Origin: Escherichia coli
GTDB lineage: Bacteria > Pseudomonadota > Gammaproteobacteria > Enterobacterales > Enterobacteriaceae
DNA length: 64,000 nucleotides
Assembly (NCBI RefSeq): GCF_003018235.1
Contig: NZ_CP027437.1
Reading direction: 5' to 3' (one strand)
A program made the translations under genes and the position numbers. Shown here piece after piece: positions 23,164 to 38,930 of the stretch (within the stretch, counting starts at the first letter, position 1; each line of letters opens with the position of its first letter). A model generated the notes under the pieces. That model was not told the DNA's origin. It saw only the letters and a program-made list of their open reading frames with translations, and did not search any database.

Positions 23164-24168
23164 CTATATGGACAGATTATGGACGCTTTCAGCCAGTGGA
23201 TTAAAGCTTATAGCATCCTGTAAAAAATCCGGTGCAAAATGCGCATATGTCATTGTTTGCTGGATAGTTGAATGTCCAAGAATCCGTTGAAGTGTTACTA
23301 TATTTCCTCCATTCATCATAAAGTGTGTTGCAAACGTATGCCGCATAACATGAGTTGCCTGTCCTTTGGGCAGATCTGGTTTTACTTCCTTTAGTGCTCG
23401 TCGAAAGTTTGTGTAATTAACATTAAACAATGCACCAGATTGTTTTATCTTGATGAGCTTTATAACTTCTTCGGATATAGGTATGGCGCGGGGTTTATTG
23501 GTTTTTGTCTGATTAAACATAACTCTGTTTCCCACAATATTTTCTCCCCGTAGTTTTGTTGCCTCTCCCCACCTTGCTCCTGTCGAAAGACACAGAATCG
23601 CTATTCGTTTGTTATCTCCAGTAAGATGATTGAGCAAGCGATCAATCTCTTCGTTTGATAAAAACGACATATCTGATGGTACAATCCTCAACTTCCTCAG
23701 ACCATGTAGCGGATTTGCATGGTGGAATTCTTCAGCATTAATCAGCACTGAAAACATGGCTGAAAGTACGCAGAGATCCCTGTTTACCGTGTTGGGTGTC
23801 AGTCCTGCACTGAGTTTGTTTGCACGATAACTCAGAAGGAACTTTCTGGTTACACCGTTGGCTCTGGGATCTCCCATTTCTCTGATCACTTTATTCAGCC
23901 TTTGCAGGTATGTCTCACCATAAGGCTGATTTTGCCCGTCGAGCATCCACCACATTTCGGCAAGTTCGGAAAGATGGCGTTTGTCTGCGGGTTTTTCCAG
24001 CCATGGTTTGTTATGCATGTTCTGAAGAACATATTTTTCATAATCCTGCGCTTTCGACTTCAGGGTGAAAATTTTTCGAATCCGCTTCCCTTCCGCACCC
24101 TGAGGTCTGACATCAACCTGATAACGTCCGTCTTTGAGCTGCTTAATCGACATGATTAGCACCTCCAA
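23164..24168 (-). CDS. int: Tyrosine-recombinase integrase, P2-family-like
   Basis: C-terminal catalytic region ...ATHVMRHTFATHFMMNGGNIVTLQRILGHSTIQQTMTYAHFAP...; ILCLSTGARWGEA and TKTNKPR motifs as I recall in P2 Int; true start may be the Met at 24153. Confidence 0.9.
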   Translation of the reverse strand: MEVLIMSIKQLKDGRYQVDVRPQGAEGKRIRKIFTLKSKAQDYEKYVLQNMHNKPWLEKPADKRHLSELAEMWWMLDGQNQPYGETYLQRLNKVIREMGDPRANGVTRKFLLSYRANKLSAGLTPNTVNRDLCVLSAMFSVLINAEEFHHANPLHGLRKLRIVPSDMSFLSNEEIDRLLNHLTGDNKRIAILCLSTGARWGEATKLRGENIVGNRVMFNQTKTNKPRAIPISEEVIKLIKIKQSGALFNVNYTNFRRALKEVKPDLPKGQATHVMRHTFATHFMMNGGNIVTLQRILGHSTIQQTMTYAHFAPDFLQDAISFNPLAESVHNLSI

Positions 24169-24243
24169 CGGTATTTTGTTGCTTTAATACATTTCTGTAC
24201 CTTGTAATGTATTCAATATGCAGGCCAAACCAGCATCCTGGTG

Positions 24244-24567
24244 TTATTGGTGTGATTTTGAGTTTGTTGTAGTTGAATCCTGAGCGGCCTCCGATTCTCC
24301 AGAGCCATCAAGAGAGAGAGCCGGGGCGATCTGCCCGGCCTGAGGGAAGGTTTTGCCGTGCAGGAGCCACATTGTGTATTTTTCGAACAGTGAGCACTGT
24401 AATACACGGAGGGCGATATCTGCCCGGGCAGGTTGATGTCCTGTTTCATAACTCTTAACAGAACCAAGAGCTATACCTGTTATCTCGCTAAACTTTTGCT
24501 GGGTTATTTTTTCAGCACGTCTGATCGCTCGTAGTTTTTGAGCAAAATCCATTGACAAGGTATTCAT
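24244..24567 (-). CDS. Immunity repressor, P2 C-like (HTH)
   Basis: HTH FSEITGIALGSVKSYETG; C-terminal KYTMWLLHGK..GQIAPAL resembles P2 C (KYTLWFMTN..GQIAPAL) from memory; same strand as int. Confidence 0.7.
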   Translation of the reverse strand: MNTLSMDFAQKLRAIRRAEKITQQKFSEITGIALGSVKSYETGHQPARADIALRVLQCSLFEKYTMWLLHGKTFPQAGQIAPALSLDGSGESEAAQDSTTTNSKSHQ

Positions 24568-24668
24568 ATAACGACTATCCTTCTTTTGGTTGTTGATTAA
24601 CGACGTTTGCAATAGCTGACTATAGTCGACAGTAGCCAGCAAACGCACCAACGATGGAGGATAACAAA
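24568..24668. promoter_or_regulatory. Divergent promoter/operator region between repressor and cox-like gene
   Basis: 100-bp intergenic region with perfect palindrome GACTATAGTC (24618-24627) and a GACTAT half-site at 24573-24578. Confidence 0.4.
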
Positions 24669-25127
24669 ATGCAGGAAACTATTGCAGAGGGGGGGATATT
24701 CAACGCTGGTGGGGATGACACGCAGTTACAGGAAAAGGAAGTCAGAAATAAATTATCACTGAGACTTGATGGACCTGTAGCGGATTTAGTTTTTCTGGAT
24801 AAAGGAGCAGCATACGTTGGGCTGACCAGGAAAGCGCTTGCAACAGCTTTACGTAGAGGCGAAATGCCTGGACATAAGAAAAGAAAAAATCCTGAAGATG
24901 AAACATCGCGTGGAGTGTGGATTTTTAACGTCAAGGCATGGAATGAACTTGCTGATATTTTGCCTGAAATTGAGCCACCAGAATGGCATCACTGGAAAGA
25001 TTACTGGTTATACAACCGAAACACTCGGAAATTTCAAAAGATTGATAAACAAGATTGTACACAGATTAATGGTAAACGTGTTTACAGGCCGCGTCAGAGC
25101 AGACTGGAAAAAGCACGTCAGTCATGA
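24669..25127 (+). CDS. Hypothetical DNA-binding protein in cox/apl position (possible excisionase or lytic-switch regulator)
   Basis: GGAGG SD 9 nt upstream; segment LVFLDKGAAYVGLTRKALATALRRGEMP resembles excisionase/AlpA-type HTH; divergent from repressor. Confidence 0.35.
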   Translation: MQETIAEGGIFNAGGDDTQLQEKEVRNKLSLRLDGPVADLVFLDKGAAYVGLTRKALATALRRGEMPGHKKRKNPEDETSRGVWIFNVKAWNELADILPEIEPPEWHHWKDYWLYNRNTRKFQKIDKQDCTQINGKRVYRPRQSRLEKARQS

Positions 25128-25299
25128 AACGGTATTTATTAGTAAGCAACAAGAAAGTGAATTAAACTCATCGGCAATAACTCGTTATTAAATTGTCATA
25201 CTGTCTGAAACTATTTCCTTCTATTACTGATGTGTGAGGCACGGAAAGGGAATTCCGTTTTTTTAGTGGTGCGATGAGAAAATAACAGAGGTGTCAGAA

Positions 25300-25485
25300 A
25301 TGGAAAAAGAAAAACTGAGACATTTTCGTAAAGAATTAAAAGCTTCTCAGCGTGTAATGACTTTGGCTATTAAGCGATTAGAGGAAGGACGTTATAAGTC
25401 TGCAGTGGAACTCATGCGTGCAGAAGCAGCGGATATATTTAAACTGGCAGATGAATTAAGTGATGTAACAGAACAACAATCCTGA
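25300..25485 (+). CDS. Hypothetical small protein (61 aa)
   Basis: ATG with AGAGGTG SD; helical MEKEKLRHFRKELKASQRVMTLAIKRLEEG... Confidence 0.3.
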   Translation: MEKEKLRHFRKELKASQRVMTLAIKRLEEGRYKSAVELMRAEAADIFKLADELSDVTEQQS

Positions 25486-26281
25486 ACACAGGAAAGTTAT
25501 GGGCTTGTGTGATTCAGAAAGTGTGAGGTTACGTGCAAAATGGCCAGACATGTAAAAAAGAACTTGAATGCAGTGTCGGCATGGTGGTATTTTTCATCTG
25601 CTGCCACAGTGCTGGCAGTCGGGAATACCACCCCGTATGTGTCAACGGCGACATCAGACGCCGCAAGCGTCTTTTTTGTTGTCGTAACCTTATACGCCAT
25701 GAAGCTCCATTTTATGGTGCGGTGTTATCCATTAAGAGCCGTTGCAAGCGCCTCTACCGGAAGGGGCTGGATAACATCCACCACCATGTCAATGGTAGCT
25801 CAGGCGGGGCCGACTTCGGTCGGGCCGGTTTCCGTTGGCACCGGTAGTGGTATCCCCGTCTGGGCTATCGCCAGTGAGCATACCACCTCCTGCGATAGCA
25901 GTATGTTATGTCAACGGAGGCTGCCTGAATGGCTACAATCCCAACCCAAAAGCGCCCAAAATCCGCGCTCCCCCAGCTCAGCAGTGACTGTCGTCGCCGG
26001 ATACACCGTGTGCAGATGGTTACGCTCCATTATTACATTCAGTGTCTCGCTGATAATCCGTGTTCAGTTGATTTTTGTTTTCCGTACTTATTGTCTTACA
26101 TCCACGATGATATTAAGGCTATAGATAATGAGTTAATTTCTCTTGGCCTGTTTGAACAGGCGATGGGAAAGAAAAAACGACGATAGTTTTCATCGTTATT
26201 AATTAACGTTGTCAGGAAGTATTAAACACACCGCTCACGCGGCGGGAATCTTACATCTTAAATATCTGACGAGGTGGAAAC

Positions 26282-26437
26282 ATGAAGCTGTTTTCATTAC
26301 GTAAAAATAAAAAAACGGAAAAAAAGAAACGCACTTATCCGGCAAATAATAACGTCCGTCTGTTACGTTATTACCAGAAATTACAGGAATTAAGTTGTGA
26401 ACCGGATAAAAAGTTCAGCCTGGATGTGTGGATGTAA
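26282..26437 (+). CDS. Hypothetical small basic protein (51 aa)
   Basis: Strong SD GAGGTGG 6 nt upstream; immediately precedes the exonuclease gene; preceded by the conserved 19-nt motif at 26228-26246. Confidence 0.3.
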   Translation: MKLFSLRKNKKTEKKKRTYPANNNVRLLRYYQKLQELSCEPDKKFSLDVWM

Positions 26438-26448
26438 TGGGGGAATAA

Positions 26449-27024
26449 ATGAACGATCTGATGATTGATACTGAAACAACAGGAACATCCCATCATTCAG
26501 GGATTATTTCCTTTGCCGCAGCATTTTTTAATCCAGATACCGGAGATAAAGGTGACCACATTTATCTTCGCCTGGACTGGGTGAGTGCGACACGTAATGG
26601 CGCAGTGATTGATCCGGAGACATTCTGTTTCTGGTTAGAGCAATCGACAGAAGTAAGAATGGAAGCCGTCAGGAAAGACGAAAGTATTTCTGAACGTGAC
26701 GCCACATATGCGCTGATTAATTTTATTGAGCAGCGTGCTGATATCAGACGGGTGCGTGTCTGGGCGAAGTCACCCACGTTTGACTGCTCACTTCTTCGTG
26801 ACATGTGTGATCGGAGTATTGGGTCAAATACCAGCGTAGAAATGTTGTGGCCGTTCTGGAATGAGAGAGATGTCAGGACTGTTGAAGGGCTTGCCGCGCA
26901 TCTTGGCATTCCGTTGCCTTACTCCAGAAAGGAAGTCACTCATCATGCTCTTAATGACGTTATGGGGCAGATAAAAAATGTGGCTACCGTATTTGCAGCA
27001 CTGCGTGGCGTGATGGAGGTGTGA
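26449..27024 (+). CDS. DEDDh-type 3'-5' exonuclease (DnaQ-like)
   Basis: Exo I motif MIDTETTGT at N-terminus; later acidic/His residues (HHALNDV) consistent with Exo III. Confidence 0.65.
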   Translation: MNDLMIDTETTGTSHHSGIISFAAAFFNPDTGDKGDHIYLRLDWVSATRNGAVIDPETFCFWLEQSTEVRMEAVRKDESISERDATYALINFIEQRADIRRVRVWAKSPTFDCSLLRDMCDRSIGSNTSVEMLWPFWNERDVRTVEGLAAHLGIPLPYSRKEVTHHALNDVMGQIKNVATVFAALRGVMEV

Positions 27025-27025
27025 T

Positions 27026-27244
27026 GTGAATAAAGCACAACGTAATGCTGCAGCGGCAGCGAATCGTCACAGGGTCTCGCCGGAACAGGTGCTCATCTGG
27101 TGTGAGCAACTGAAACGCATTGTGGACACAGCAAACCAGAATACGCGGCACAACGAAAAGAGCAGGGCGCTTGAGCCGATTATTGCGTGGATTGAGCAGC
27201 AGAAGAAACAGGCAATGGAAGAAATCAGAAAACGGGGTGAATGA
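27026..27244 (+). CDS. Hypothetical protein (72 aa)
   Basis: GTG start with GGAGGTG SD overlapping exonuclease stop; translationally coupled to the next gene (ATGA overlap). Confidence 0.4.
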   Translation: MNKAQRNAAAAANRHRVSPEQVLIWCEQLKRIVDTANQNTRHNEKSRALEPIIAWIEQQKKQAMEEIRKRGE

Positions 27245-29283
27245 AAATGGCAGAAGAAAAGAATCAGGAATATGCATATGTATTTCCGGTAAAAAACGAA
27301 GCCGCCAGAAAACGCCTGGGTTTTGCGCATGGCTTTTACTGGAAGAGTGATTGCTCACAGGCGAGAGTGTTGCTTCGGGCGAATGTTGCCATGCTGGATG
27401 CGGGTTTTGAACCGGAGGATTTCAAAAAGCCTGTACGTGTTAATTTCCCGGTGGTGAACGAACTCCCAGCGGAAGGTGTTTTTGATACGGAATTTTGCCA
27501 CCTGTATGTACCGGGCGGTGAAGACGGCAAGACGATGGTGTATATCGACGCTGTAAAACAGGAGGCAGACAAGGAAAAAAACAACGTAGCCAGTAACACC
27601 AACGTCAACGGCGAAGATATGACTGAGATTGAGGAGAGCATGCTTCTGCCGATTTCCGCTCAGGAGTTGCCAGTTCGCTGGCTGGCGCAACACGGGAAGG
27701 AGAACCCCGTTACTCACGTTTCCAGAGACGAACTTCAGGCTTTACATGTTGCACGGGCGGAAGAATTACCGGCAGTTACTGCACTGGCGGTTTCCCACAA
27801 AACAGGCCTGCTCGACCCGCTGGAGATCCGCGACCTTCACAAACTGGTGCGTGATACTGACAAAGTTTTCCCTCATCCTGGCAATTCAGACCTGGGGCTC
27901 TTGACTGCTTTTTTTGAAGCATACCTGAATGCTGACTACACCGATCGCGGTCTGCTGACAAAAGAATGGTGCAAAGGAAATCACATATCCCGCCTGGAAC
28001 GTAAAAAAATACAACCAGAGAGCGCAGAACCGCTACGTGCAACCAGGGAAAGACCGCGGCGTAGTGAAAAACCAACCTTCAGAACGATTAATTATGAAAT
28101 CGCCTGTGCTTTATGCCCGGGTGCGGACTGTCATGATTTACGTCCGGTGGTGAATTCAGCGAAGAAACTGATGGCTGACGGGGATGAAAGATGGCGGGCA
28201 TGGTCGACATCTCTTGGCATTACTGAAGGGATTAAAAACTGGGACAGAAAAACGATTTTTGACATGGTCAGTCAGGCTCCGTCACATGTCACAACGGGGT
28301 CAGCAGAGGCGCGCAGGGAGTGGATTGAAAACTTTCTGATTGCACGTGGTGTGCGTGATCCGGAGTGGGCTGAGCCGCTTGTATGCGTTTCCGTACCGGA
28401 ACATGAAGATAATCTGGAAAGAGTTCGCGGTGCAGGAAAACGTCTGCGGAAGCTTGAGAATAGTGATTGCACATTTCAGGCAGACAACGGTTCTGGGGAG
28501 GCTGAGGTGGTTGAAGCGGACGAAAGCAAAGCAACGTCATCTGCTGAAATTCAGGATGCCGATAAATTACTGGCCGCTTACCGTGGTGAATATGTTGAAG
28601 GGATTAGCGACCCGAATGATCCGAAGTGGGTGAAGGGGATCCAGAGACGCGATGATGAGGACCAGGATCAGGCTGAAGCGGAACAAGACGACCAACACGT
28701 GGAACGGAACAGCCCAGATGCGAGACAAAACGAGCCTGATACGGAACAGAATGAGCAAGGAGCACTGCAGGGACCGGAAAAAGTCTGCGACACCTGCGGA
28801 CAGGACGGAGGTGGAAAATGTCCGGATTGCGGTTCTGTCATGGGGGATAGCACATACAGTGCCGTTTATGGCGGGGATCGAGAGGAGTCAGCGTATGTGG
28901 CAGAGCATGGTGCTTTGAATAATCAGAGCAAAGTTACAGTTGGCGAGGTCATGGAGATCATGAAAGCGGTTAAGCCAGCCGTTCATGTTGATGCTGAAGG
29001 GGAAACGGAAGAGATAAACGGTGATCAACTATCACTGCAGACTGAAAATAAGGATGACCGGTCATCACGGAAAGCGTCAGAAGATGTGCCCATGTTTATC
29101 AGTGAGACCGTTCTCCATAAGGAGGATGGTGAGGCAAATATGAATATCTGTGAGTTGGTGAACATGTTGCATCAGCAACAGGAAATGCTGAAAGAAATCC
29201 GCTCAACTCAGGCCCGCTTTATGGGCGCGATTGTAGCCATGCTTTCGGTTATTTCAGGGGGAGAGCAGGTAGGACATGAGTAA
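27241..29283 (+). CDS. Hypothetical 680-aa protein with acidic tract and CxxC-x9-CxxC zinc ribbon
   Basis: Long ORF with balanced composition; CDTCGQDGGGKCPDCGS motif; D/E/Q-rich segment; no NTPase motif seen. Confidence 0.6.
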   Translation: MKMAEEKNQEYAYVFPVKNEAARKRLGFAHGFYWKSDCSQARVLLRANVAMLDAGFEPEDFKKPVRVNFPVVNELPAEGVFDTEFCHLYVPGGEDGKTMVYIDAVKQEADKEKNNVASNTNVNGEDMTEIEESMLLPISAQELPVRWLAQHGKENPVTHVSRDELQALHVARAEELPAVTALAVSHKTGLLDPLEIRDLHKLVRDTDKVFPHPGNSDLGLLTAFFEAYLNADYTDRGLLTKEWCKGNHISRLERKKIQPESAEPLRATRERPRRSEKPTFRTINYEIACALCPGADCHDLRPVVNSAKKLMADGDERWRAWSTSLGITEGIKNWDRKTIFDMVSQAPSHVTTGSAEARREWIENFLIARGVRDPEWAEPLVCVSVPEHEDNLERVRGAGKRLRKLENSDCTFQADNGSGEAEVVEADESKATSSAEIQDADKLLAAYRGEYVEGISDPNDPKWVKGIQRRDDEDQDQAEAEQDDQHVERNSPDARQNEPDTEQNEQGALQGPEKVCDTCGQDGGGKCPDCGSVMGDSTYSAVYGGDREESAYVAEHGALNNQSKVTVGEVMEIMKAVKPAVHVDAEGETEEINGDQLSLQTENKDDRSSRKASEDVPMFISETVLHKEDGEANMNICELVNMLHQQQEMLKEIRSTQARFMGAIVAMLSVISGGEQVGHE

Positions 29284-29497
29284 GTTAAGTGATGAAGCGT
29301 GTGATGTTTTTGAATGTCTGCTGGCATCAGAACGGAATACAGCACGGGGTGTGGCAAAAGAGTTACAGATATCTCCGGCAACTGCGGTTGAAATACTGAA
29401 ACGGCTGGAGGAAGAAGGGCTGGTAACACAACTGAATGGCTTCTGGTCTGTGCAGGAAAAGAAAAGCAACGGGAGTAAAAATGGAAAACATAGTTGA
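29276..29497 (+). CDS. Small winged-helix-like protein (paralog 1)
   Basis: TARGVAKELQISPATAVEILKRLEEEGLV pattern shared with 29481, 30300 and 37514 ORFs. Confidence 0.5.
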   Translation: MSKLSDEACDVFECLLASERNTARGVAKELQISPATAVEILKRLEEEGLVTQLNGFWSVQEKKSNGSKNGKHS

Positions 29498-30284
29498 TGC
29501 CCTGAAAGCGATGGGTAAAGCCACGTCAGTGGAACTGGCTGCGCGTCTCCAGATCAGCCGTGAGGAAGTACTGAATGAACTCTGGGAATTGCGGCGCAGT
29601 GGTGTTGTGGATCAAAACTTACAGGTCTGGACACTGGCCAGCGATGGTGCGCAACGGGAACAAAAAACGCCTGCTGCGGTGTATCAGCGTGATAACAAGG
29701 AGGAGCGTAAATTACGTGAGGTCGTCAGTCGCCAGGAGCGAGCGCCACTGAATCGCAGTGATATTCTGTCCGCGTTTGCTCATTGTGAGGAAATGACCAC
29801 CGCGGAGATAGCAACAGCAGTGGGGCGCGCTGATAGTGTCAGGTCGTTGGTTTCCGCAATGGAAAAACTTTGTCGTACTGGTCTGGTAATCAAAATGGGG
29901 CAGGGTAAGGGGTGTAAGTGGAAACTGGTAAAAAAATCCGGTGAAAATTTACCAACAGTGCCAGAAACAGAGCCGGTAGCGCTGTCCGGTGGTAAATCTG
30001 AGTCTGCCGCTGTGGTGGTCGATTTGCCACAGCAGAAAACGCAGACCAAAACCAAACAAGAGACTGTGACGGACATTGTGCAGTCGCTGCCATCGTTTAC
30101 CGCAACGCGGTATGATGACCTGATTTTACCATCGCTGCATATGGCAAACCGCGAACTGCGTCGGGCGAAAAGTCATGTCCAGAAGTGGGAGCGAGTCTGC
30201 GCCGCGCTGCGGGAGCTGAACAAGCACCGGGATATTGTTCGACAGATTACTGATTCTTCCCGCCGGGTTGCATCGGAAAAGTGA
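29481..30284 (+). CDS. Tandem winged-helix-like protein (paralogs 2a/2b)
   Basis: Two internal copies of the same ~50-aa pattern (ATSVELAARLQISREEVLNELWELRRSGVV and MTTAEIATAVGRADSVRSLVSAMEKLCRTGLV); GGGAG SD. Confidence 0.5.
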   Translation: MENIVDALKAMGKATSVELAARLQISREEVLNELWELRRSGVVDQNLQVWTLASDGAQREQKTPAAVYQRDNKEERKLREVVSRQERAPLNRSDILSAFAHCEEMTTAEIATAVGRADSVRSLVSAMEKLCRTGLVIKMGQGKGCKWKLVKKSGENLPTVPETEPVALSGGKSESAAVVVDLPQQKTQTKTKQETVTDIVQSLPSFTATRYDDLILPSLHMANRELRRAKSHVQKWERVCAALRELNKHRDIVRQITDSSRRVASEK

Positions 30285-30299
30285 TTGCCGGAGGCGCTT

Positions 30300-30722
30300 A
30301 TGGCAAAAGTATTTACACAAGAAGAGCGGGAAAAAATTAAAGGGCAGGTTGTTGAGCTAGTACGCCGGAGTGGGCGCGAGACGTTACGGCAACTGGAAGC
30401 CAAGACAGGTGTGACAAGATATCTGATGAGCGTTCTCGCCAGAGAGCTGGTTGCCAGTGGCGATGTATACAACTCTGGTTACGGGTTATTCCCCTCTGAA
30501 CAGGCTCGTAAGGACTGGCAAAACGCCCGTAAAAAACTATCTAGGGCAAAGGTAAAAAAAACGGTTGTGGTTGATCCTGACCTTATCTGGTCATTACCTG
30601 ATGGAGAAATACGCCGCTACGACAGGAGCCTGAATATAATCTGTCGCGAGTGCCGGAAGAGCGAAGCTATGCAGCGTGTACCGGCTTTCTATCAGGGCAA
30701 TTTTCAGGAGGCGGTACTGTGA
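30300..30722 (+). CDS. Winged-helix-like protein (paralog 3)
   Basis: VVELVRRSGRETLRQLEAKTGVTRYLMSVLARELVASGDV; GGAGG SD. Confidence 0.5.
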   Translation: MAKVFTQEEREKIKGQVVELVRRSGRETLRQLEAKTGVTRYLMSVLARELVASGDVYNSGYGLFPSEQARKDWQNARKKLSRAKVKKTVVVDPDLIWSLPDGEIRRYDRSLNIICRECRKSEAMQRVPAFYQGNFQEAVL

Positions 30723-30779
30723 GTGAAATTAGCTATCAGGCTTCAATTACCGCTGGCATTCGCATCAAAGGAGAGGAGC

Positions 30780-31136
30780 ATGGAAATAAAACCAGAAGAT
30801 GAGTTAAGCAATATCGTTTTATTCCCGGTAAAAGAGGATGACCCTCGTAATCGGGTTAATTTTCTTTATGAGCCATCGGAAAGACCATATTGCCATCACG
30901 CTTCTGTCCGGGTTGACGAAAAAGAGCGTCAGGTCCGCTGTAAAATCTGCGGCGCAGTTGTGGAGCCATTTGACTGGATGCTCTCTGTGGCGAAAAGAGA
31001 AACCAGACTGGCAGATGATGTAAGGCTCTTGCGCCAGGAGGAACGGGAAAGGCGAAAAAATATAGAAAAGCTAATTCAGATTGAGCGTAACGCGAAAGCG
31101 CGGATACGCAGGGTGACAAAATACAGAACTGAATAA
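30780..31136 (+). CDS. Hypothetical protein with Cys/His cluster
   Basis: AGGAGAGGAG SD; YCHHASVRVDEKERQVRCKICG; basic C-terminus. Confidence 0.45.
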   Translation: MEIKPEDELSNIVLFPVKEDDPRNRVNFLYEPSERPYCHHASVRVDEKERQVRCKICGAVVEPFDWMLSVAKRETRLADDVRLLRQEERERRKNIEKLIQIERNAKARIRRVTKYRTE

Positions 31137-31187
31137 TTAAATTCAGCACTGCAAATAAAAATTAAATCCTTAACTTGAGGTATATCT

Positions 31188-31400
31188 ATGTTAAATACAC
31201 AGAAAACAATTAACGCGGAAAAATATAACGAGTGGGTGAGAAAATTCTCTGAGCAGATTTTTAAAATTACTGGCGACGAGAATGTGGCAAAAAATGAATT
31301 AGAGCCGTGGACACCTGAAGGAACCGACCCAAATTATTGTTGGTGGGAGGTTGATCCGGTTGATGCTGCAAATGAAGCCATGAGTTACTACAACGATTAA
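31188..31400 (+). CDS. Hypothetical protein (70 aa)
   Basis: ORF with upstream GAGG; no recognisable motif. Confidence 0.35.
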   Translation: MLNTQKTINAEKYNEWVRKFSEQIFKITGDENVAKNELEPWTPEGTDPNYCWWEVDPVDAANEAMSYYND

Positions 31401-31435
31401 TGCCGGAAGACTACCCGAAAGAGAGGTAATGAAAA

Positions 31436-32065
31436 ATGGCTGAATTAACCAAAGAATGGCTAAAAAACATGATTACCGGAATTGAGTCGGTAATAGACGA
31501 TAAATCGTTTGTATGTGATGAAATAGTATTCAAAATAGGTGAGGTTAAAAACATACTTACCGCATTTAAAGTCGCGCTGGCATCGCTGGAAGCAGAGCCG
31601 GTGGCTGAGATTAGAGCGCACTACCCATTAGGGATTAACGGCGGTAAACAAAAGTTCGTCCAGGCCATTGGAGATCTTCCTGACTTTGGCGGACATCTGT
31701 ACGCCGCTCCGCCAGCGCCTGTAGTGCCGGATGAGGGGCGCGACAAGTTTGAAGCAATTATCAGGTTTCATGTCGGTGATGAAAACCATGAAACATTATT
31801 GCTGCGGGCCAACGAAGGGATGAATTACCGGGACCCAAATGTTGATTTTGCATGGATATTCTGGAAGTCCAGTCGTGAGCATCTGCTTCGGAATAATGAC
31901 GGCAGTCTGCCAGAATCGGGTCATCAGGTACGCGGATTAACACTGCTGGTTAAGCGACTGGCCAGTTCATTAAAAAGCGTCAATAAATCCAGCAAGCTGC
32001 CTGATAAGGCGCTGGAGTATCTGAAGCAGAACGGACTGATAAGCGTGGAGGATATTTTACGATGA
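31436..32065 (+). CDS. Hypothetical protein (209 aa)
   Basis: ORF with SD AGAGAGG; no recognisable motif. Confidence 0.45.
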   Translation: MAELTKEWLKNMITGIESVIDDKSFVCDEIVFKIGEVKNILTAFKVALASLEAEPVAEIRAHYPLGINGGKQKFVQAIGDLPDFGGHLYAAPPAPVVPDEGRDKFEAIIRFHVGDENHETLLLRANEGMNYRDPNVDFAWIFWKSSREHLLRNNDGSLPESGHQVRGLTLLVKRLASSLKSVNKSSKLPDKALEYLKQNGLISVEDILR

Positions 32066-32149
32066 CCTGGCCTGAAGCATTCACCACGGCAGGAATTGCG
32101 ATGGCGGTGGCACTGGTTGTGTATTCTATTTGTCGTTGGGGGTAAACAC

Positions 32150-32401
32150 ATGTTCTCTCTGATTCAGCGTGGTCAGCGGTATGTTGATGCAGCTGGTTAT
32201 CCTGTGGAGATTTGTTTTTGTTCTGCTGAGAAAGTGGTGTATCGCCGCCAGGACAATCAGACCCGTTCTGCAAGTATTGTTGACTTTAATCAGAATTTTG
32301 AACGTCTGGATTATCACGAATATATACGGATTAAATCAGATATGGAGCAGACAGAACATCTGCGGAAATTAAGACGATTACACAAAAGAGGTGGGGAATA
32401 A
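32150..32401 (+). CDS. Hypothetical protein (83 aa)
   Basis: Internal ATG with GGGGG SD; MFSLIQRGQRYVDAAGYPVEICF... Confidence 0.35.
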   Translation: MFSLIQRGQRYVDAAGYPVEICFCSAEKVVYRRQDNQTRSASIVDFNQNFERLDYHEYIRIKSDMEQTEHLRKLRRLHKRGGE

Positions 32402-32894
32402 CCACGGATAAAGAGAACTAAATTTCGTCAGAATTAACAGGAAATAACTGGAACGAAAAATACACCGCTTACGCGGCGGGGTTTCTGCAACCTTAAAACA
32501 GGGTAAGAGAAATGGCAGAGATGATGAACAATAAACTCTTCATAACCAGTCTCTTTAAGTTGACTGGCCGGGAGTAACGACCAGTGGCAATACAAAAAAA
32601 CCGCTTGCCAGCGTTTGTCTGGTCGGGTTACATTTCCCGTGCACCTCATAAAACGGGTGCCGGGATTCTCAACCCGCAGAAGAACAGAGCGCATAACCGC
32701 GCCAGCGGTTTTTTTATGCGTGCCGTATCGTCACACCTTTTTCGCACACGAATTATGGCGGGGCGTACGGGGCCGACTTCGGTCGGGCCGGATCCTCTGT
32801 TCTCCGGTGTTGAGAACCCCGTACGTCTCGCCACCCCGAGATTCTCAACTCTGGATGGTGAGTTATGTCTATCACTGAACAGAGGTTACCCCTT

Positions 32895-33125
32895 ATGGCA
32901 AACCGTAAACAACAGCGCGCCCGCACTGAGCGTCGTCACATCCAGACCGAAATCAACCGCAGACTGTACCGGGCTATCACTGTCGCCAGAGTCATGTACT
33001 TCAATATGCTGTGTGATCAGGGATGCCAGATTGCACCTGATTACATTGCCTCCACGTTCAGTTACCTGGCAGACGATCTGCGGGATATGCAACGCCTGGT
33101 TAACGATCAGGCGCATAACCTGTAA
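32895..33125 (+). CDS. Hypothetical small basic protein immediately upstream of repA
   Basis: MANRKQQRARTERRHIQTEINRRLY...; alternative start at 32865. Confidence 0.35.
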   Translation: MANRKQQRARTERRHIQTEINRRLYRAITVARVMYFNMLCDQGCQIAPDYIASTFSYLADDLRDMQRLVNDQAHNL

Positions 33126-33203
33126 CGCACTTTTTCCTGAAATCATGAAACGGCACTCCGCTATCTGGCGGGGTGTCTGGCTGCCCGTTATCCGGGAGGA
33201 CAT

Positions 33204-35126
33204 ATGACCGTGTATTCAGCGGGAGGTCCGCGCATGCCTGAGCCGGAAGAAGAACAGGCATTCACTGAAGAGGTGAACAGCGCCTTTTCCGGGCTGCCTC
33301 GTTTTGTGTCTGTAAAGCTGGGGCGCAGGATCAGCAGCGCATGGCAGACAAAGGGTTTTGCCGGTGCACGGGAAAAATTTGCGCTGATGGTTCAGAAGGA
33401 TTTGCCGTTCATTACCGGGGTGAATAAACGTTATGCCATTAATCCGGATGAATTACCGGGGTGGCTGTTTGGTGGGCTGGCATCTGATCAGGCATACGGT
33501 GCGGTTCATTCCATGACCTGGCGATTTAATGCCATGGTGGATGGTGACGACGGGGATGCGCATTTACTGGCTCAGGATCTGTCCGTGTTTCTTATTGCTG
33601 AAATGCAGCACCTGAGTGTTCTTCTTGCGGATGAAGATGCGGATGCGGCGGCAGATGCCATTTATGCCATGGTTGCCGGGCTTGTTGAGCATTTCCGGAT
33701 GGAGCCACCGGACTGGAAGCGTTTTATTGGCAGAAAGCTGACACTGGAGCAACTGACTGTTGCCATCAGCCGGATGCTGAGTGTTCGCTGGTGGCAGGGA
33801 AAACTCAGGGCATTCTCCCGTCGCTGGCGTGAACATCTGCTTATAGCTATGGGTGTCGTTCGTCGGCAGTCTTCACCGCACTGCAGTTATGAATGGGTGC
33901 AGAGGTGGCTGGCGGGGCGTAAGCACGGTCGAAGGCTGATGGCGGAAACGGACGTTGAGGATGAAGAAACAGGAGAAAGATTTTCACTTCTCGATTTGGT
34001 TGACAGCAGCATTTCAGATGCGGAGAAACGCCGCGCAGAGCTGATGACCAGGGTTAAGGGGCTGGAAGATTTAGCCCGTTTTGAAGGTGTGGCGCAGGAG
34101 CAGGGGTATATCGGGCTTTTTTTCACGATGACCGCGCCATCAAAATATCATGCCTGGCTGGAGACAGGATATCGCAATCGTCGTTATAACGGCGCAAGCC
34201 CGAAAGACACACAAAATTATTTCTCCGGACTCTGGCGTCAGATCAGTGCAACGCTGAGGCGCAGGGGGATCGGGATTTTTGGATTAAGAAGTGCCGAACC
34301 GCATCATGACGGAACGCCGCACTGGCATGGTGTTCTCTATGTGCATCAGGAGCATGCTGCCGCCTTACAGGACATTCTTGAGTATTACGCCAACCGCGAT
34401 GATGACGCGGGAAAAACGCCCATCCGCAAAGCAGGAAGAAAATCCCACCTGGAAATAAAACCGGTTCTTGATGATCTGGGGAGTGCCTCTGCCTATATCG
34501 CCAAGCATATTGGAATGAATCTTGACGGTTGTGCGCCAGGCGGAATGAATCATGAAACGGGCCATACACTGGTGGTCACTGCCCGCCACGCCTCGGCGTG
34601 GGCGTCATTATGGGGGATCAAGCAGTTTCAGTTTATAGGCAGCACACCGGTAAGTGTATGGCGTGAGCTGCGTCGCTTTAACAATCAGGCTCATGCTGAC
34701 CGGATAAGCCCGGCGCTGGGTGAGTTACACCGTGCAGCCAGTGAGGGTGACTGGAAAACCTATACCAGGCTGCAGGGTGGACCGTTTGTGGCACGAAGAG
34801 ATCTGGTCCTTCGCACATGGTATCAGCGTTCGGAGGAGCCGGATGAGTGTGGGCTACACACCAGTGCGATCAAAGGTGTTTATATGCCGGGGCGTGATAC
34901 GCCACCGGTAGTGACGCGTTCACGTAACTGGAGGATCACCCGGAACGTTACAACAGGCGCTCTCAATGTTAACCGGGGGTCTGCTTTAACGCCCTGGACT
35001 TGTGTCAATAACTGCATTTCGGGCAGAAAACGACCAGATGGTCATCCTCCGGATCCAGGTATAAGGATCCCTGTTCAACTGGAACTGAACTTCGGGGAAG
35101 AGAATAAAGGGAAAAGTGAGCAGTAA
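33204..35126 (+). CDS. Rolling-circle replication initiation endonuclease (HUH family; P2 gpA-like)
   Basis: GGGAGGA SD; HUH-type motif GTPHWHGVLYV; 640 aa in the position of gene A relative to int-C-cox. Confidence 0.75.
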   Translation: MTVYSAGGPRMPEPEEEQAFTEEVNSAFSGLPRFVSVKLGRRISSAWQTKGFAGAREKFALMVQKDLPFITGVNKRYAINPDELPGWLFGGLASDQAYGAVHSMTWRFNAMVDGDDGDAHLLAQDLSVFLIAEMQHLSVLLADEDADAAADAIYAMVAGLVEHFRMEPPDWKRFIGRKLTLEQLTVAISRMLSVRWWQGKLRAFSRRWREHLLIAMGVVRRQSSPHCSYEWVQRWLAGRKHGRRLMAETDVEDEETGERFSLLDLVDSSISDAEKRRAELMTRVKGLEDLARFEGVAQEQGYIGLFFTMTAPSKYHAWLETGYRNRRYNGASPKDTQNYFSGLWRQISATLRRRGIGIFGLRSAEPHHDGTPHWHGVLYVHQEHAAALQDILEYYANRDDDAGKTPIRKAGRKSHLEIKPVLDDLGSASAYIAKHIGMNLDGCAPGGMNHETGHTLVVTARHASAWASLWGIKQFQFIGSTPVSVWRELRRFNNQAHADRISPALGELHRAASEGDWKTYTRLQGGPFVARRDLVLRTWYQRSEEPDECGLHTSAIKGVYMPGRDTPPVVTRSRNWRITRNVTTGALNVNRGSALTPWTCVNNCISGRKRPDGHPPDPGIRIPVQLELNFGEENKGKSEQ

Positions 35127-35253
35127 ATTTTCCGGTTAAGTCAGCGGAAGAAACTGGACTTGTCCGGAGAATAAAAATACCGGTTTTACCTGGGCATGGT
35201 TTTATATACAGTGTCGCTGTATGGCGACAGTTAAGTGAAAAATGAGGTGGAAC

Positions 35254-35523
35254 ATGAGAGGACTGGAGCTTGAACGAATGACGCCGGAAAAAATGCATGC
35301 AATTGGTATGGAGTTCATCAGGAGATCTGAGGCCATGACGCAGGCGGGGATGACAAAAGACGCTGTCAGAAAAAATCTGCTTCCGGCGATACAGCGCCTG
35401 AACCGTGCAAAACATGAGCTTCAGATGGTGGTTGATCAGATGATCGATAAGGCAGCAGAGCTGGAAAAGTATAGCAGTGCGCTTGAAAAAATCATTCAGG
35501 ATATTGTGGGCACTGAGCAGTAA
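35254..35523 (+). CDS. Hypothetical coiled-coil protein
   Basis: GAGGTGG SD; 89 aa. Confidence 0.4.
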   Translation: MRGLELERMTPEKMHAIGMEFIRRSEAMTQAGMTKDAVRKNLLPAIQRLNRAKHELQMVVDQMIDKAAELEKYSSALEKIIQDIVGTEQ

Positions 35524-35533
35524 GAGGTGGGGT

Positions 35534-36613
35534 ATGCAGGCGATCCTGACGGTATTCCCGCAGCGTAATGCCGGGATAACACTGATGAAAACAGGTAATC
35601 TGACAGCGCGGTTCAGGGACGGGCAGAGAATAATGATAAGGGATGTTCCGTCTGTGATGGCTGGGATGCCATCAGGAGAAATTCCGTCATCAGGACAGAG
35701 GCTGGCGGAAGAGGAAGGACTGACGGCTTTCTTTGCTGACGGAAGGGTAATAAAGCGTGCTGGTGGCAGTGATGCCATGGCGCGTTGGGTGAGCAGGATT
35801 GCAGGCTGCCAGTGTGAGAATGGTGATCACGTGGAGAACATGACAACAGCGCGGACAATGCAGGGAGAGGCGCTTCGGTTATGCCATGCCTGTGATAATC
35901 ATCATTATATGAAAGGATATCGGGCGCTGGCAGATGTGGCAGCCAGAAATCGTGCAGAATGGCTGATGGATTATATCAGGATGAGTCTGGGGCTGGGGGA
36001 AGATCATCAGGTGACCATTCCTGAGTTGTTTTGCTGGGCAGTGCTGAATGATGTGGCAGATGCTGTTCCGGTTATGATCGTAAGGCGTATCAGACAATTG
36101 CCGGAAGAGGAAAAGCTGAGCGGCACGATGAAAGAAGCAGATATTAATCCCTGGCAGACATCAGCAGGCACAGTGGTGAAGAAACTGGCAGATAATGCGA
36201 AGAGCGTTAATGTGTGCAATGTGCGGGTCAGACATGCAGTACGCCAGGAAGAACACAAAGAAATGGAAAAACCGGTGCTGAAACTTGTTGCAGACAGTGA
36301 TCCGGCTGCGGGCTATATGAGGAAGCCCAGAATGCAGCGGCTGTCTCTGCCGGGTTATACCTCGTGGGTGAAGCGTCAGCGATGCTGTGGATGCGGGAAA
36401 CCTGCAGATGATCCGCATCACATCACCGGGCACGGTTTTGGTGGTGCAGGGATAAAAGCCAGTGATTTGTTTGTGATCCCGCTGTGTCGGCAATGTCATC
36501 AGGAATTACACAATGACAGCAAGGCATGGGAGGAGAAAAACGGCAGTCAGTTGCTGTGGGTGATAAGGACGCTGGACAGGGCAGCGGGCATTGGCGCTTT
36601 AGTTGGGGGGTAA
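35534..36613 (+). CDS. Hypothetical protein with C-terminal HNH-like Cys/His nuclease motif
   Basis: CCGCGKPADDPHHITGHGFGGAGIKASDLFVIPLCRQCHQELHND; translationally coupled to upstream gene. Confidence 0.55.
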   Translation: MQAILTVFPQRNAGITLMKTGNLTARFRDGQRIMIRDVPSVMAGMPSGEIPSSGQRLAEEEGLTAFFADGRVIKRAGGSDAMARWVSRIAGCQCENGDHVENMTTARTMQGEALRLCHACDNHHYMKGYRALADVAARNRAEWLMDYIRMSLGLGEDHQVTIPELFCWAVLNDVADAVPVMIVRRIRQLPEEEKLSGTMKEADINPWQTSAGTVVKKLADNAKSVNVCNVRVRHAVRQEEHKEMEKPVLKLVADSDPAAGYMRKPRMQRLSLPGYTSWVKRQRCCGCGKPADDPHHITGHGFGGAGIKASDLFVIPLCRQCHQELHNDSKAWEEKNGSQLLWVIRTLDRAAGIGALVGG

Positions 36614-36614
36614 C

Positions 36615-37319
36615 ATGACACCGCAACAGATGGTATGGGCGAGAGAGCAGGTTATTTTTGCACTGAATCCACCGGATAAACGTCAGAAGGGGCAACTGGA
36701 GGCATTTGGTGATTTTGCCAGGTCAGACACCAGGCGTTACGGGAGGCAGAGAAACAGGACACTGAACATTGATGGCCGGTGGTATTGTCAGGATGGTGAT
36801 CCGGTACATGCTGCGGCAACAGCCTGTTATGCAATACAACCGGATATGATCACCAGGGAAGCGTTCAGAACGGCACAACTGAGGAGGAGGATTTATTGTC
36901 TGGAGGATTATCATCGGGCCTGGGTGTTATTCAGTTACAGCTTGCAGAAAAAACGAATACACCATCTTCTGGTCAGTGAGTACATCTGGATGAGGATGTT
37001 CGAGCGGTTGCAGGGGAAACGGGTTACGGACAGGATGACAGGAAATCTGATTGAAATAGCGAGGATGGCTGCATGGAATGCTGCAGTGACAGCCGGTGGG
37101 ATTGTTGCAGGTAAGGTTCTGATTGCTCCTTCATGTGCGGCGCAGATTGCAGGTGTAAAACCAAACACATGGAGTCAGCATTACAAGGCTCACTGGTGTT
37201 TTATGCATGAAGTATGCGATGAACTGGATCATGAGGCGCTGGTGACCATTACAGGAATAAAAAATCACCAAAAAAACGGCGAAAAATATAAATTTGCTAA
37301 AGTGAATATTTTAAGGTAG
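36615..37319 (+). CDS. Hypothetical protein (234 aa); a late-gene antiterminator role is possible by position only
   Basis: Last long ORF before a terminator and the late region; no motif recognised with confidence. Confidence 0.4.
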   Translation: MTPQQMVWAREQVIFALNPPDKRQKGQLEAFGDFARSDTRRYGRQRNRTLNIDGRWYCQDGDPVHAAATACYAIQPDMITREAFRTAQLRRRIYCLEDYHRAWVLFSYSLQKKRIHHLLVSEYIWMRMFERLQGKRVTDRMTGNLIEIARMAAWNAAVTAGGIVAGKVLIAPSCAAQIAGVKPNTWSQHYKAHWCFMHEVCDELDHEALVTITGIKNHQKNGEKYKFAKVNILR

Positions 37320-37365
37320 ATTTGAGGCAAATTTGATAGTCTGCCGTATTTGTAAGCAGAGCATA

Positions 37366-37389
37366 AACCCGCATATTGCGGGTTTTTTT
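37366..37389 (+). terminator. Rho-independent terminator
   Basis: ACCCGC-atatt-GCGGGT hairpin followed by TTTTTTT. Confidence 0.55.
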
Positions 37390-37513
37390 ATGCCCGAAAT
37401 TTTCCCTCAGCGCAATAAATACGCTGGTGGTTGTGAGTACCGGTCTTTCAGCTTGCTGGCTTTTTCGACAAGAGTTATTGGTATGCCACGTTAACCGGAC
37501 AGGGGGAAAAGAC

Positions 37514-37711
37514 ATGCTGAAACAGCAGGATATGACAGAAACCGCCAGGGTGGTGTTTAATGAATTAAGCATTACCGAACCGGCGACCGTCGGGGAAATA
37601 GCGCAGAATACCTGCCTTTCACGTGAACGCTGCCAGTTAATACTGACTCAGCTTGTTATGGCGGGTCTGGCTGACTATCAGTTCGGTTGTTACAGACGCC
37701 TTCAGCAATGA
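37514..37711 (+). CDS. Small winged-helix-like protein (paralog 4)
   Basis: TARVVFNELSITEPATVGEIAQNTCLSRERCQLILTQLVMAGL; GGGGG SD; precedes the methyltransferase. Confidence 0.5.
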   Translation: MLKQQDMTETARVVFNELSITEPATVGEIAQNTCLSRERCQLILTQLVMAGLADYQFGCYRRLQQ

Positions 37712-37862
37712 AGGCATTCTTTTATTGTGAAGATGGGCGACTGGTTAGGTGTTACAGCACCCAACCAGTCATTCGCTCATGCTTGAAGGTCACAAGCGAA
37801 CCCAGGCCCACCGCTTTTGCACAAAAGCCCGGAGAGCCTACCGGAGATGAGTTTGTTGATCT

Positions 37863-38930
37863 ATGACGCATGTTGTAAAAATATCAGAAAGTGAACTGGT
37901 CAATGCTGACTGCCTGGAATTTATACACACGTTGCCAGATGACAGTATTGACCTGATCGTTACCGATCCACCGTACTTTAAAGTGAAACCCAATGGCTGG
38001 GATAACCAGTGGAAGGGTGATGAAGATTACCTGAAGTGGCTGGATCAGTGTCTTGCGCAGTTCTGGCGGGTGCTGAAACCTGCCGGAAGTCTTTACCTGT
38101 TCTGTGGCCATCGCCTGGCATCTGACATCGAAATCATGATGCGTGAACGCTTTAATGTGCTGAACCATATTATCTGGGCGAAGCCGTCCGGACGCTGGAA
38201 CGGATGCAACAAGGAAAGCCTGAGGGCGTATTTCCCGGCCACAGAGCGCATTCTGTTCGCGGAACACTATCTGGAGCCGTATCGCCCGAAAGATGATGGT
38301 TATGAGGCGAAGGGCAGGGCACTGAAACAGCATGTGATGGCACCGCTGATTTCTTACTTTCGTGATGCGCGTGCCGCCCTTGGGATAACGGCAAAACAGA
38401 TTGCTGATGTCACAGGAAAGAAAAACATGGTGTCGCACTGGTTCAGTGCCAGTCAGTGGCAGCTGCCGAACGAAAGCGATTATCTGAAATTACAGGCGCT
38501 GTTTGCCCGGGTGGCAGAAGAGAAGCATCAGCGCGGAGAACTGGAAAAGCCACACCACCAGCTGGTGGTAACGTATACCTCACTGAACCGGCAGTATGCG
38601 GAGTTGCTGAGTGAATACAAAAATCTGCGCCGGTATTTTGGCGTGACGGCGCGGGTCCCGTACACCGATGTGTGGACGCACAAGCCGGTCCAGTTTTACC
38701 CGGGTAAACACCCCTGTGAAAAACCGGCGGAGATGCTGCGGCAGATAATTTGTGCGAGCAGCCGTCCTGGTGACATGGTGGCGGATTTCTTTATGGGGTC
38801 GGGCTCAACCATAAAAGCCGCTATGGCGCTGGGGCGTCGTGCAATTGGTGTTGAACTGGAAGAGGAACGTTTTGCGCAGACCGTGAAAGAGATTAGTCAT
38901 ATCCTGACAGGCTCAATTGATGACGGATAA
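37863..38930 (+). CDS. DNA methyltransferase, beta-class N6-adenine/N4-cytosine
   Basis: Motif IV DPPY (IVTDPPYF) precedes motif I FMGSGST; 355 aa. Confidence 0.85.
   Translation: MTHVVKISESELVNADCLEFIHTLPDDSIDLIVTDPPYFKVKPNGWDNQWKGDEDYLKWLDQCLAQFWRVLKPAGSLYLFCGHRLASDIEIMMRERFNVLNHIIWAKPSGRWNGCNKESLRAYFPATERILFAEHYLEPYRPKDDGYEAKGRALKQHVMAPLISYFRDARAALGITAKQIADVTGKKNMVSHWFSASQWQLPNESDYLKLQALFARVAEEKHQRGELEKPHHQLVVTYTSLNRQYAELLSEYKNLRRYFGVTARVPYTDVWTHKPVQFYPGKHPCEKPAEMLRQIICASSRPGDMVADFFMGSGSTIKAAMALGRRAIGVELEEERFAQTVKEISHILTGSIDDG

Follow-up and report, generated by a model that had tools for sequence, protein, structure and literature searches.

What does the largest early gene of a prophage encode, when its product carries no recognisable enzymatic motif and automated annotation sets it aside as a pseudogene? 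This question was raised by a stretch of 64,000 nucleotides of Escherichia coli DNA (contig NZ_CP027437.1 of assembly GCF_003018235.1), which as a whole will be referred to as the window. The gene lies in a P2-type early operon on the plus strand, behind a small open reading frame (ORF) for a protein of 72 amino acids (aa). The original prediction, made from the letters of the DNA, had placed an ORF for a 680-aa protein at 27241-29283 of the plus strand, which exists as stated, and had recognised no NTPase, nuclease or polymerase motif in its product. Database comparisons indicated that the 680-aa protein is almost certainly a homologue of the N-terminal region (N-region) of RecE, or exonuclease VIII, which has been retained without the nuclease domain, and that the gene is very probably functional.

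A RecE N-region without the nuclease

The large ORF and the Pfam domain detected in its product are located as follows.

27241..29283, plus strand: large ORF, 680-aa RecE-family protein without nuclease domain (BLASTP against RecE, NF007259, orthologues)
27388..27822, plus strand: match to Pfam PF06630 (Exonuc_VIII), residues 50-194, E 9.1e-35

BLASTP against an 891-aa RecE yielded 49% identity (E 4e-164) between residues 9-543 of the query and residues 6-569 of RecE; hardly any differences were seen in residues 120-250 and 439-475, and the alignment extended over the acidic tract and zinc knuckle described below. Consistent with this, the NCBIfam model NF007259 was matched with 539.8 bits compared to a curated cutoff of 1269, the best stretch covering profile positions 4-422 of 877, and phrog_607 ('exonuclease VII') was matched with E 2.6e-131 over profile positions 5-551 of 883. 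The Pfam scan of the 680-aa protein gave nothing significant besides PF06630. In particular, the PD-(D/E)XK nuclease domain PF12684 was not matched, and the alignment with RecE stops at RecE residue 569; the place of the RecE nuclease domain is occupied by ~135 residues (546-680). Searching all PDB chains with the protein and with a nine-member profile yielded nothing under E 0.7.

As the catalytic domain is absent, 5'-3' exonuclease activity on double-stranded DNA is not expected from this sequence. The earlier statement that the protein contains no nuclease, NTPase or polymerase motif is correct according to Pfam and NCBIfam; BLASTP, PF06630 and NF007259 clearly place the protein in a known family. 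Database names for the gene already read 'RecE family' or 'exonuclease'. Confident homology to a known structural or replication protein had been named as the outcome that would speak against the original reading, and the homology to RecE amounts to this in spirit, since RecE is a recombination protein; the part that is homologous nevertheless lacks an assigned role.

A selected gene or a pseudogene

In three out of three annotated genomes examined, the RefSeq pipeline (Prokaryotic Genome Annotation Pipeline, PGAP) flags the gene as a partial RecE-family pseudogene, with the wording 'incomplete; missing N-terminus and C-terminus' for the region. The gene would then be a truncated, functionless recE in decay, a view that the loss of the catalytic domain and the 540 bits obtained with NF007259, far under the equivalog cutoff, would fit. 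However, related prophages at pheA (locus L003) and cpxP (locus L004) contain intact orthologues (677 and 704 aa), which are 69% identical over the full length, tail included. The frame is thus uninterrupted over 677-704 codons in three lineages that differ by dS 0.6-0.8, and the ratio of nonsynonymous to synonymous substitutions (dN/dS, Nei-Gojobori) was 0.22-0.26. The folded head and residues 431-475 showed the lowest ratios (0.10-0.27), the acidic tract the highest (0.34-0.69). The tail, which lies outside the homology to RecE, is also conserved (51-54% identity), as are the junctions with the flanking genes. Furthermore, distant stand-alone members of 619-716 aa, 33-35% identical, occur with the same neighbours in other prophages with P2-type early genes; in L010 the gene order is preserved at 33-38% identity.

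The flag itself is explained by the use of full-length RecE as comparison. These findings largely refute the pseudogene reading, which we consider very unlikely, and the conserved frame argues that the large gene is very probably a functional one.

Three architectures of the family

The N-region was found in three architectures: class A, PF06630 plus PF12684, represents RecE with about 890 aa; class B, PF06630 plus PF16473, comprises proteins of 785-823 aa in which the N-region is joined to a DEDDh 3'-5' exonuclease; class C contains PF06630 alone. The family is small, comprising 158 representative clusters at E<=1e-3, and among the AFDB50 matches listed all belong to Escherichia, Salmonella or Shigella.

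Viral contigs were scanned with a nine-sequence alignment, and the survey set consisted of 80 IMG/VR loci (L012-L091) on prophage contigs. The class B fusion was the commonest architecture (57 of 80), with RecT nearby in none of the 57. A RecE-type nuclease followed the N-region in 18 of the 80; eleven loci were near-identical to Rac RecE and continued with recT, and seven carried a divergent RecE-type nuclease (27-28% identity). Two loci showed a stand-alone gene followed by Gam and YqaJ, and in three no nuclease was detected, two of these probably being clipped by the contig end. Neither the class C tail nor the 72-aa ORF was found in any of the 80 loci. Outside this set, phage mEp460 carries a class B gene between dicB/ydfD and xis-int, without an annealase, and locus L007 contains a stand-alone gene of 683 aa (P0126) followed by Gam-RecT-YqaJ. 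A further protein, P0124 (703 aa), was observed to run from the RecE N-region straight into a RecT domain (PF03837, E 2e-42) without an intervening nuclease domain; it may have arisen as a deletion fusion or may represent a genuine fourth architecture.

Predicted structure and sequence features

An AlphaFold2 model of the 680-aa protein, built with a 64-sequence alignment and judged by its predicted local distance difference test (pLDDT) values, divides the protein into a folded head and a long, largely disordered remainder, in which the following elements were distinguished.

27253..28485, plus strand: folded head, residues 5-415, pLDDT mostly >90
28555..28638, plus strand: conserved linear motif DADKLLAAYRGEYVEGISDPNDPKWVKG, residues 439-466, near-invariant in classes A, B and C
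28651..28776, plus strand: acidic D/E/Q-rich low-complexity linker, residues 471-512, with 15 D/E, 8 Q and 2 K/R among 42 residues
28786..28830, plus strand: four-Cys zinc knuckle C516xxC519-x7-C527xxC530, string CDTCGQDGGGKCPDCGS, conserved in classes A, B and C
29146..29253, plus strand: C-terminal amphipathic helix, residues 636-671, AlphaFold2 pLDDT 71-88

The head is predicted to consist of an alpha/beta subdomain (5-110) and two helical ones (120-250 and 270-415), and residues 418-630 are largely disordered in the model. Within the linear motif, which RecE and the 680-aa protein share as DADKLLAA...DPNDPKWVKG, a short helix (440-447, pLDDT 70-77) is predicted with disorder on both sides.

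The D/E/Q-rich segment of the original prediction is real, and the four cysteines are likewise present; their spacing had been given as CxxC-x9-CxxC, whereas seven residues separate the two pairs. The motif is a putative zinc knuckle of the CxxC-xn-CxxC arrangement, although its pLDDT is about 47-50 and the Pfam DZR match is weak (E 0.19). It is not a chance feature, because all four cysteines are kept in RecE and in the DEDDh-fused relatives; it is missing from the more distant stand-alone relatives P0127, P0128, P0129 and P0131. RecE carries an equivalent acidic tract as well, so judged by the alignments the zinc motif and the acidic tract are features inherited from the RecE linker and not special to the 680-aa gene.

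This bears on the earlier speculation that the acidic tract imitates DNA and thereby blocks restriction enzymes. The tract is indeed strongly acidic, the disordered region 416-635 has an isoelectric point (pI) of 4.2, and the gene is part of an early operon. Known DNA mimics such as Ocr and ArdA, however, are rigid folded proteins, whereas the tract is predicted to be disordered (pLDDT 31-37) and would offer no rigid DNA-like surface; it is also the fastest-evolving segment of the protein, and in bona fide RecE it links the head to the nuclease. No match to Ocr or ArdA was obtained with Pfam or PADLOC, and PADLOC gave no defence or anti-defence match for either the 680-aa protein or the 72-aa ORF. 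The speculation thus found no support, and a DNA mimic appears extremely improbable.

The C-terminal helix is kept in the 69%-identical orthologues and is weakly alignable in the distant stand-alone members. A membrane anchor at this end was ruled out by a maximum Kyte-Doolittle mean of 1.34 over 19 residues. Among 1.84 billion representative proteins searched, residues 550-680 were covered by the protein's own cluster only, and the tail 546-680 had no match in any deposited phage genome. Foldseek, which had been proposed as a check of the predicted structure, retrieved RecE-family proteins only from AFDB50 and nothing at E<=0.001 from the viral database BFVD; the fold therefore gives no functional lead.

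The conserved gene unit and the start of the large gene

The genes around the large ORF are arranged as follows.

26282..26437, plus strand: 51-aa ORF ahead of the exonuclease gene; no family match; 86-96% identity and same position in L003 and L004
26449..27024, plus strand: 191-aa DEDDh 3'-5' exonuclease, Rv2179c-like; PF16473 over the full domain, E 1.3e-40
27026..27244, plus strand: 72-aa basic (pI 10) helical ORF with a GTG start behind GGAGG; constant upstream partner
29276..29497, plus strand: 73-aa winged-helix ORF, 8-nt overlap with the 3' end of the large gene; matches phrog_630 positions 4-62; conserved in L003 and L004
29436..30284, plus strand: DUF1627 protein, 282 aa, constant downstream neighbour; phrog_630 over the full length, E 5.7e-88

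As originally proposed, a DEDDh exonuclease lies upstream, and its DxE (D7, E9) and Hx4D (H165, D170) motifs are intact. The exonuclease, 72-aa, large and winged-helix ORFs follow each other in series with every junction overlapping or <=4 nt. The suggested three-gene unit holds fully for the 72-aa ORF and the large gene, each of the six P2-type loci having a 72-aa homologue immediately ahead of the stand-alone gene, and in part for the exonuclease, which occupies the same position in four of the six (window, L003, L004 and L010) and is absent from L008 and L011. Identity of the 72-aa homologues falls from 79-89% (L003, L004) to 43-50% (L008, L011) and 30-35% (L010, E 5e-6), with the motif TPEQ...NTRHN.K shared among them. 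No such homologue precedes Rac recE or the class B gene, and the relatives in the database form four E. coli clusters only, all named 'hypothetical'. Downstream, a DUF1627 gene follows the stand-alone gene in L003, L004, L009, L010 and L011. Judged by gene content, the constant core is the 72-aa ORF, the large gene and the DUF1627 gene, with the exonuclease being frequent and dispensable.

The overlap of the 72-aa ORF with the large ORF by ATGA, on which translational coupling had been based, exists. It probably does not represent the start in use: the ATG equivalent to 27241 is out of frame in L003 and missing in L004, and we therefore regard it as probably unused and incidental. The start kept across the compared loci is ATG 27247 (L003:7848, L004:7846), which is located 2 nt past the TGA of the 72-aa ORF and ~8 nt behind a Shine-Dalgarno-like GGGG(T)G. 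Translation probably begins here, yielding a product of 678 aa. Tight coupling of the two genes is still likely, as their junction overlaps or spans <=4 nt in six of six related loci.

Further observations concern the flanking ORFs. The genes 3' of the large ORF encode the winged-helix protein, DUF1627, a Ren-like protein and unknowns. The 73-aa winged-helix ORF is paralogous to the winged helix at the N-terminus of the DUF1627 protein, both matching the beginning of phrog_630; the overlapping ORFs are read in different frames, and L010 and L011 have a single DUF1627 gene instead. The 145-aa Ren-like/DNA-binding ORF at 30285-30722 matches phrog_142 over its full length and is intact in the window, and a 'DNA-binding protein' gene at the matching position of a 99.8%-identical RefSeq genome is annotated as frameshifted. 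PADLOC matches of the neighbours' winged helices to Csa3/CARF models were rejected as generic helix-turn-helix similarity, and the 51-aa ORF had no PADLOC match.

Possible function of the large gene product

Taking these data together, the best explanation overall, to which we give an even chance, is that the gene encodes a selected, nuclease-less RecE-family protein acting as a non-catalytic adaptor in DNA-end processing. We infer such a role because the same N-region is fused to two unrelated exonucleases of opposite polarity or stands beside separate nuclease genes. As an adaptor independent of the nuclease, the RecE N-region would tether an enzyme that processes DNA ends to its substrate or partner, or direct it there. 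In the window, the protein's partner in trans might be the DEDDh 3'-5' exonuclease, whose gene lies two genes upstream, the non-covalent link being supplied by the coupled 72-aa protein, the C-terminal helix or both, so that the locus would represent a 'split' version of the common N-region-DEDDh fusion. The link to nucleases is consistent with the upstream exonuclease and the fused class B domain both belonging to PF16473. Cooperation with this particular exonuclease is a reasonable possibility that we rate somewhat short of even.

Several observations weigh against this explanation. The exonuclease shares no more than 34% identity with the C-terminal DEDDh domain of the fused class B proteins, and the arrangement is therefore not the result of a recent gene fission. 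Moreover, L008 and L011 contain the small ORF and the stand-alone gene without a DEDDh exonuclease, and hence the stand-alone protein cannot strictly depend on that enzyme; an annealing protein of the RecT, Erf or Red-beta type is not encoded in the operon. Little weight attaches to an AlphaFold2 model of an artificial exonuclease-linker-72-aa-linker-protein chimera, for which the alignment combined paired rows and permuted class B fusions: the predicted template modelling score (pTM) was 0.32, from a shallow alignment and without an interface score. In the chimera the C-terminal helix reached pLDDT 46-58 compared to 71-88 alone, and confidence was raised neither in the linker nor elsewhere, so that the model says little about docking.

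Some of these points would be expected if the RecE N-region were self-sufficient, with the nucleases as optional passengers. It would then bind a factor of host or phage origin, the candidate targets being DNA ends or a protein of replication, recombination or defence. Here it would act alone, or perhaps alongside the 72-aa and DUF1627 proteins, in taking over the host, in protecting or tethering ends, or in countering defences. Stand-alone genes without a nearby exonuclease (L008, L011) argue for this reading, and it is the 72-aa ORF and DUF1627 that occur as constant neighbours rather than the exonuclease. The class B fusion is located near xis-int, outside a recognisable recombination module and without an annealase (PMC12315714), and the stand-alone gene of L007 comes on top of a complete Gam-RecT-YqaJ set. 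In addition, residues 120-250 and 439-466 are highly conserved in all architectures, which fits a surface for a slowly evolving partner. On the other hand, the N-region is covalently joined to an exonuclease in 75 of the 80 IMG/VR loci, arguing for a nuclease-linked role; no defence or anti-defence family was matched by PADLOC, and no fold relative points to a target. We therefore consider an effector acting on its own doubtful, and retain the adaptor as the preferred explanation.

Prophage setting

The region is 99.8% identical to the chromosome of E. coli O158:H23, where it is part of a prophage adjoining pheA/pheL. The following genes define the setting.

23164-24168, minus strand: integrase, P2-type
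24244-24651, minus strand: repressor, P2-type
24654-25127, plus strand: Cox, P2-type
33204-35126: GpA replication nickase, at the end of the long early operon
35477-36613: DUF968/HNH gene, downstream
36603-37319: lambdoid-style Q-like antiterminator, downstream
37863-38930: DNA methyltransferase, downstream

The prophage (window 23164-38930) is a mosaic of P2-type early genes and a lambdoid-style Q-like antiterminator. C4 antisense RNA (RF01695) was matched twice at full length, at 25788-25875 and 32751-32838 on the plus strand, with 74 and 77 bits compared to a gathering score of 45, and isrK (RF01394) at 32641-32715, plus strand, with 65 bits. The first C4 copy is located in an ~800-bp unannotated gap just 5' of the block formed by the 51-aa ORF, the exonuclease, the 72-aa ORF and the RecE-like gene; the second copy and isrK lie upstream of gpA and of an 86-aa ORF (32865-33125) that is called 'derepression protein' in the matching genome record. 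By analogy with immI of P1, C4-type antisense control of the early genes is possible. Positions 25486-26281 carry no annotated gene in the matching RefSeq genome, and the orthologous stretch contains an Icd-like pseudogene and a 'derepression protein' in L003 and an 'ash family protein' in L004. An 85-aa ORF at 25929-26186 had no PHROG match.

Implications

RecE/RecT is a workhorse of recombineering and direct cloning. Nevertheless, according to two 2023 reviews, the N-terminal ~600 residues of RecE are without a known function, except that they boost linear-linear recombination (PMC11611040, PMC11610958). The locus indicates that this N-region can be a selected, independent protein with conserved partners, namely the 72-aa and DUF1627 proteins and often the DEDDh exonuclease, and it provides a clean handle on an old minor puzzle for both genetics and biochemistry. 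The commonest architecture of the family in E. coli prophages is an uncharacterised 3'-5' exonuclease fusion rather than the textbook RecE, and for the genes described here both the name 'exonuclease' and the PGAP flag 'pseudogene' are misleading. Should the N-region after all act on its own, on DNA ends or on a host factor of DNA metabolism or defence, the N-terminal two-thirds of RecE would not be an appendage of the nuclease, and temperate phages would deploy the N-region alone or on any suitable exonuclease. The stand-alone gene with its 72-aa partner would then be a natural separation-of-function allele, with which the role of the RecE N-region could be addressed directly, as could the basis of the effect of full-length RecE on linear-linear recombination.

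Comparison with known systems

RecE of Rac (PF06630 plus PF12684; NF007259) shares with the 680-aa protein the PF06630 region, the segment 120-250, the linear motif, the acidic tract and the zinc knuckle. The 680-aa protein lacks the PD-(D/E)XK domain, the only portion of RecE for which an activity is known and a structure has been solved, and instead ends in the tail 546-680, which is confined to its own cluster and terminates in a helix. The setting differs as well: recT follows directly 3' in Rac, whereas none is located 3' of the 680-aa gene, which belongs to a P2-type early operon and not to a Rac or lambdoid left operon.

Closer in its associations is the CP-933-type 'exonuclease' (class B, phrog_2082), the N-region of which is 50% identical over residues 9-556. 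Both are associated with an Rv2179c-like DEDDh exonuclease and neither has an annealase nearby. In the CP-933 type, however, the DEDDh enzyme is the C-terminal domain, whereas here the 34%-identical counterpart is a separate upstream gene with the 72-aa gene between.

Lambdoid phages with DnaQ-like nucleases near int and nuclease-less 'RecE-2' proteins have been reported, with 'roles not known' (PMC12315714). Going by their description, the 'RecE-2' proteins are of the same kind as the 680-aa protein, RecE-related and without the nuclease fold. They were mentioned in passing and come from lambdoid early-left operons, in contrast to the P2-type early operon described here, and the present gene has conserved partners of its own in the 72-aa ORF, DUF1627 and often the DEDDh exonuclease. 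Similarly, P0126 of L007, located in a Rac-like prophage, is nuclease-less, of similar length (683 aa), contains the zinc knuckle and has a separate exonuclease gene in its operon. There, however, the partner is a downstream 5'-3' enzyme of the YqaJ/lambda-Exo type, Gam and an annealase are present, and a homologue of the 72-aa ORF is missing.

The family itself is already known, and relatives without a nuclease have received brief mention for lambdoid phages. New are the occurrence of a stand-alone form in P2-type early operons, its tail, which is confined to the cluster of this protein, the 72-aa protein as a dedicated partner, the split from a DEDDh exonuclease encoded by a gene of its own and the evidence of purifying selection despite the pseudogene flag.

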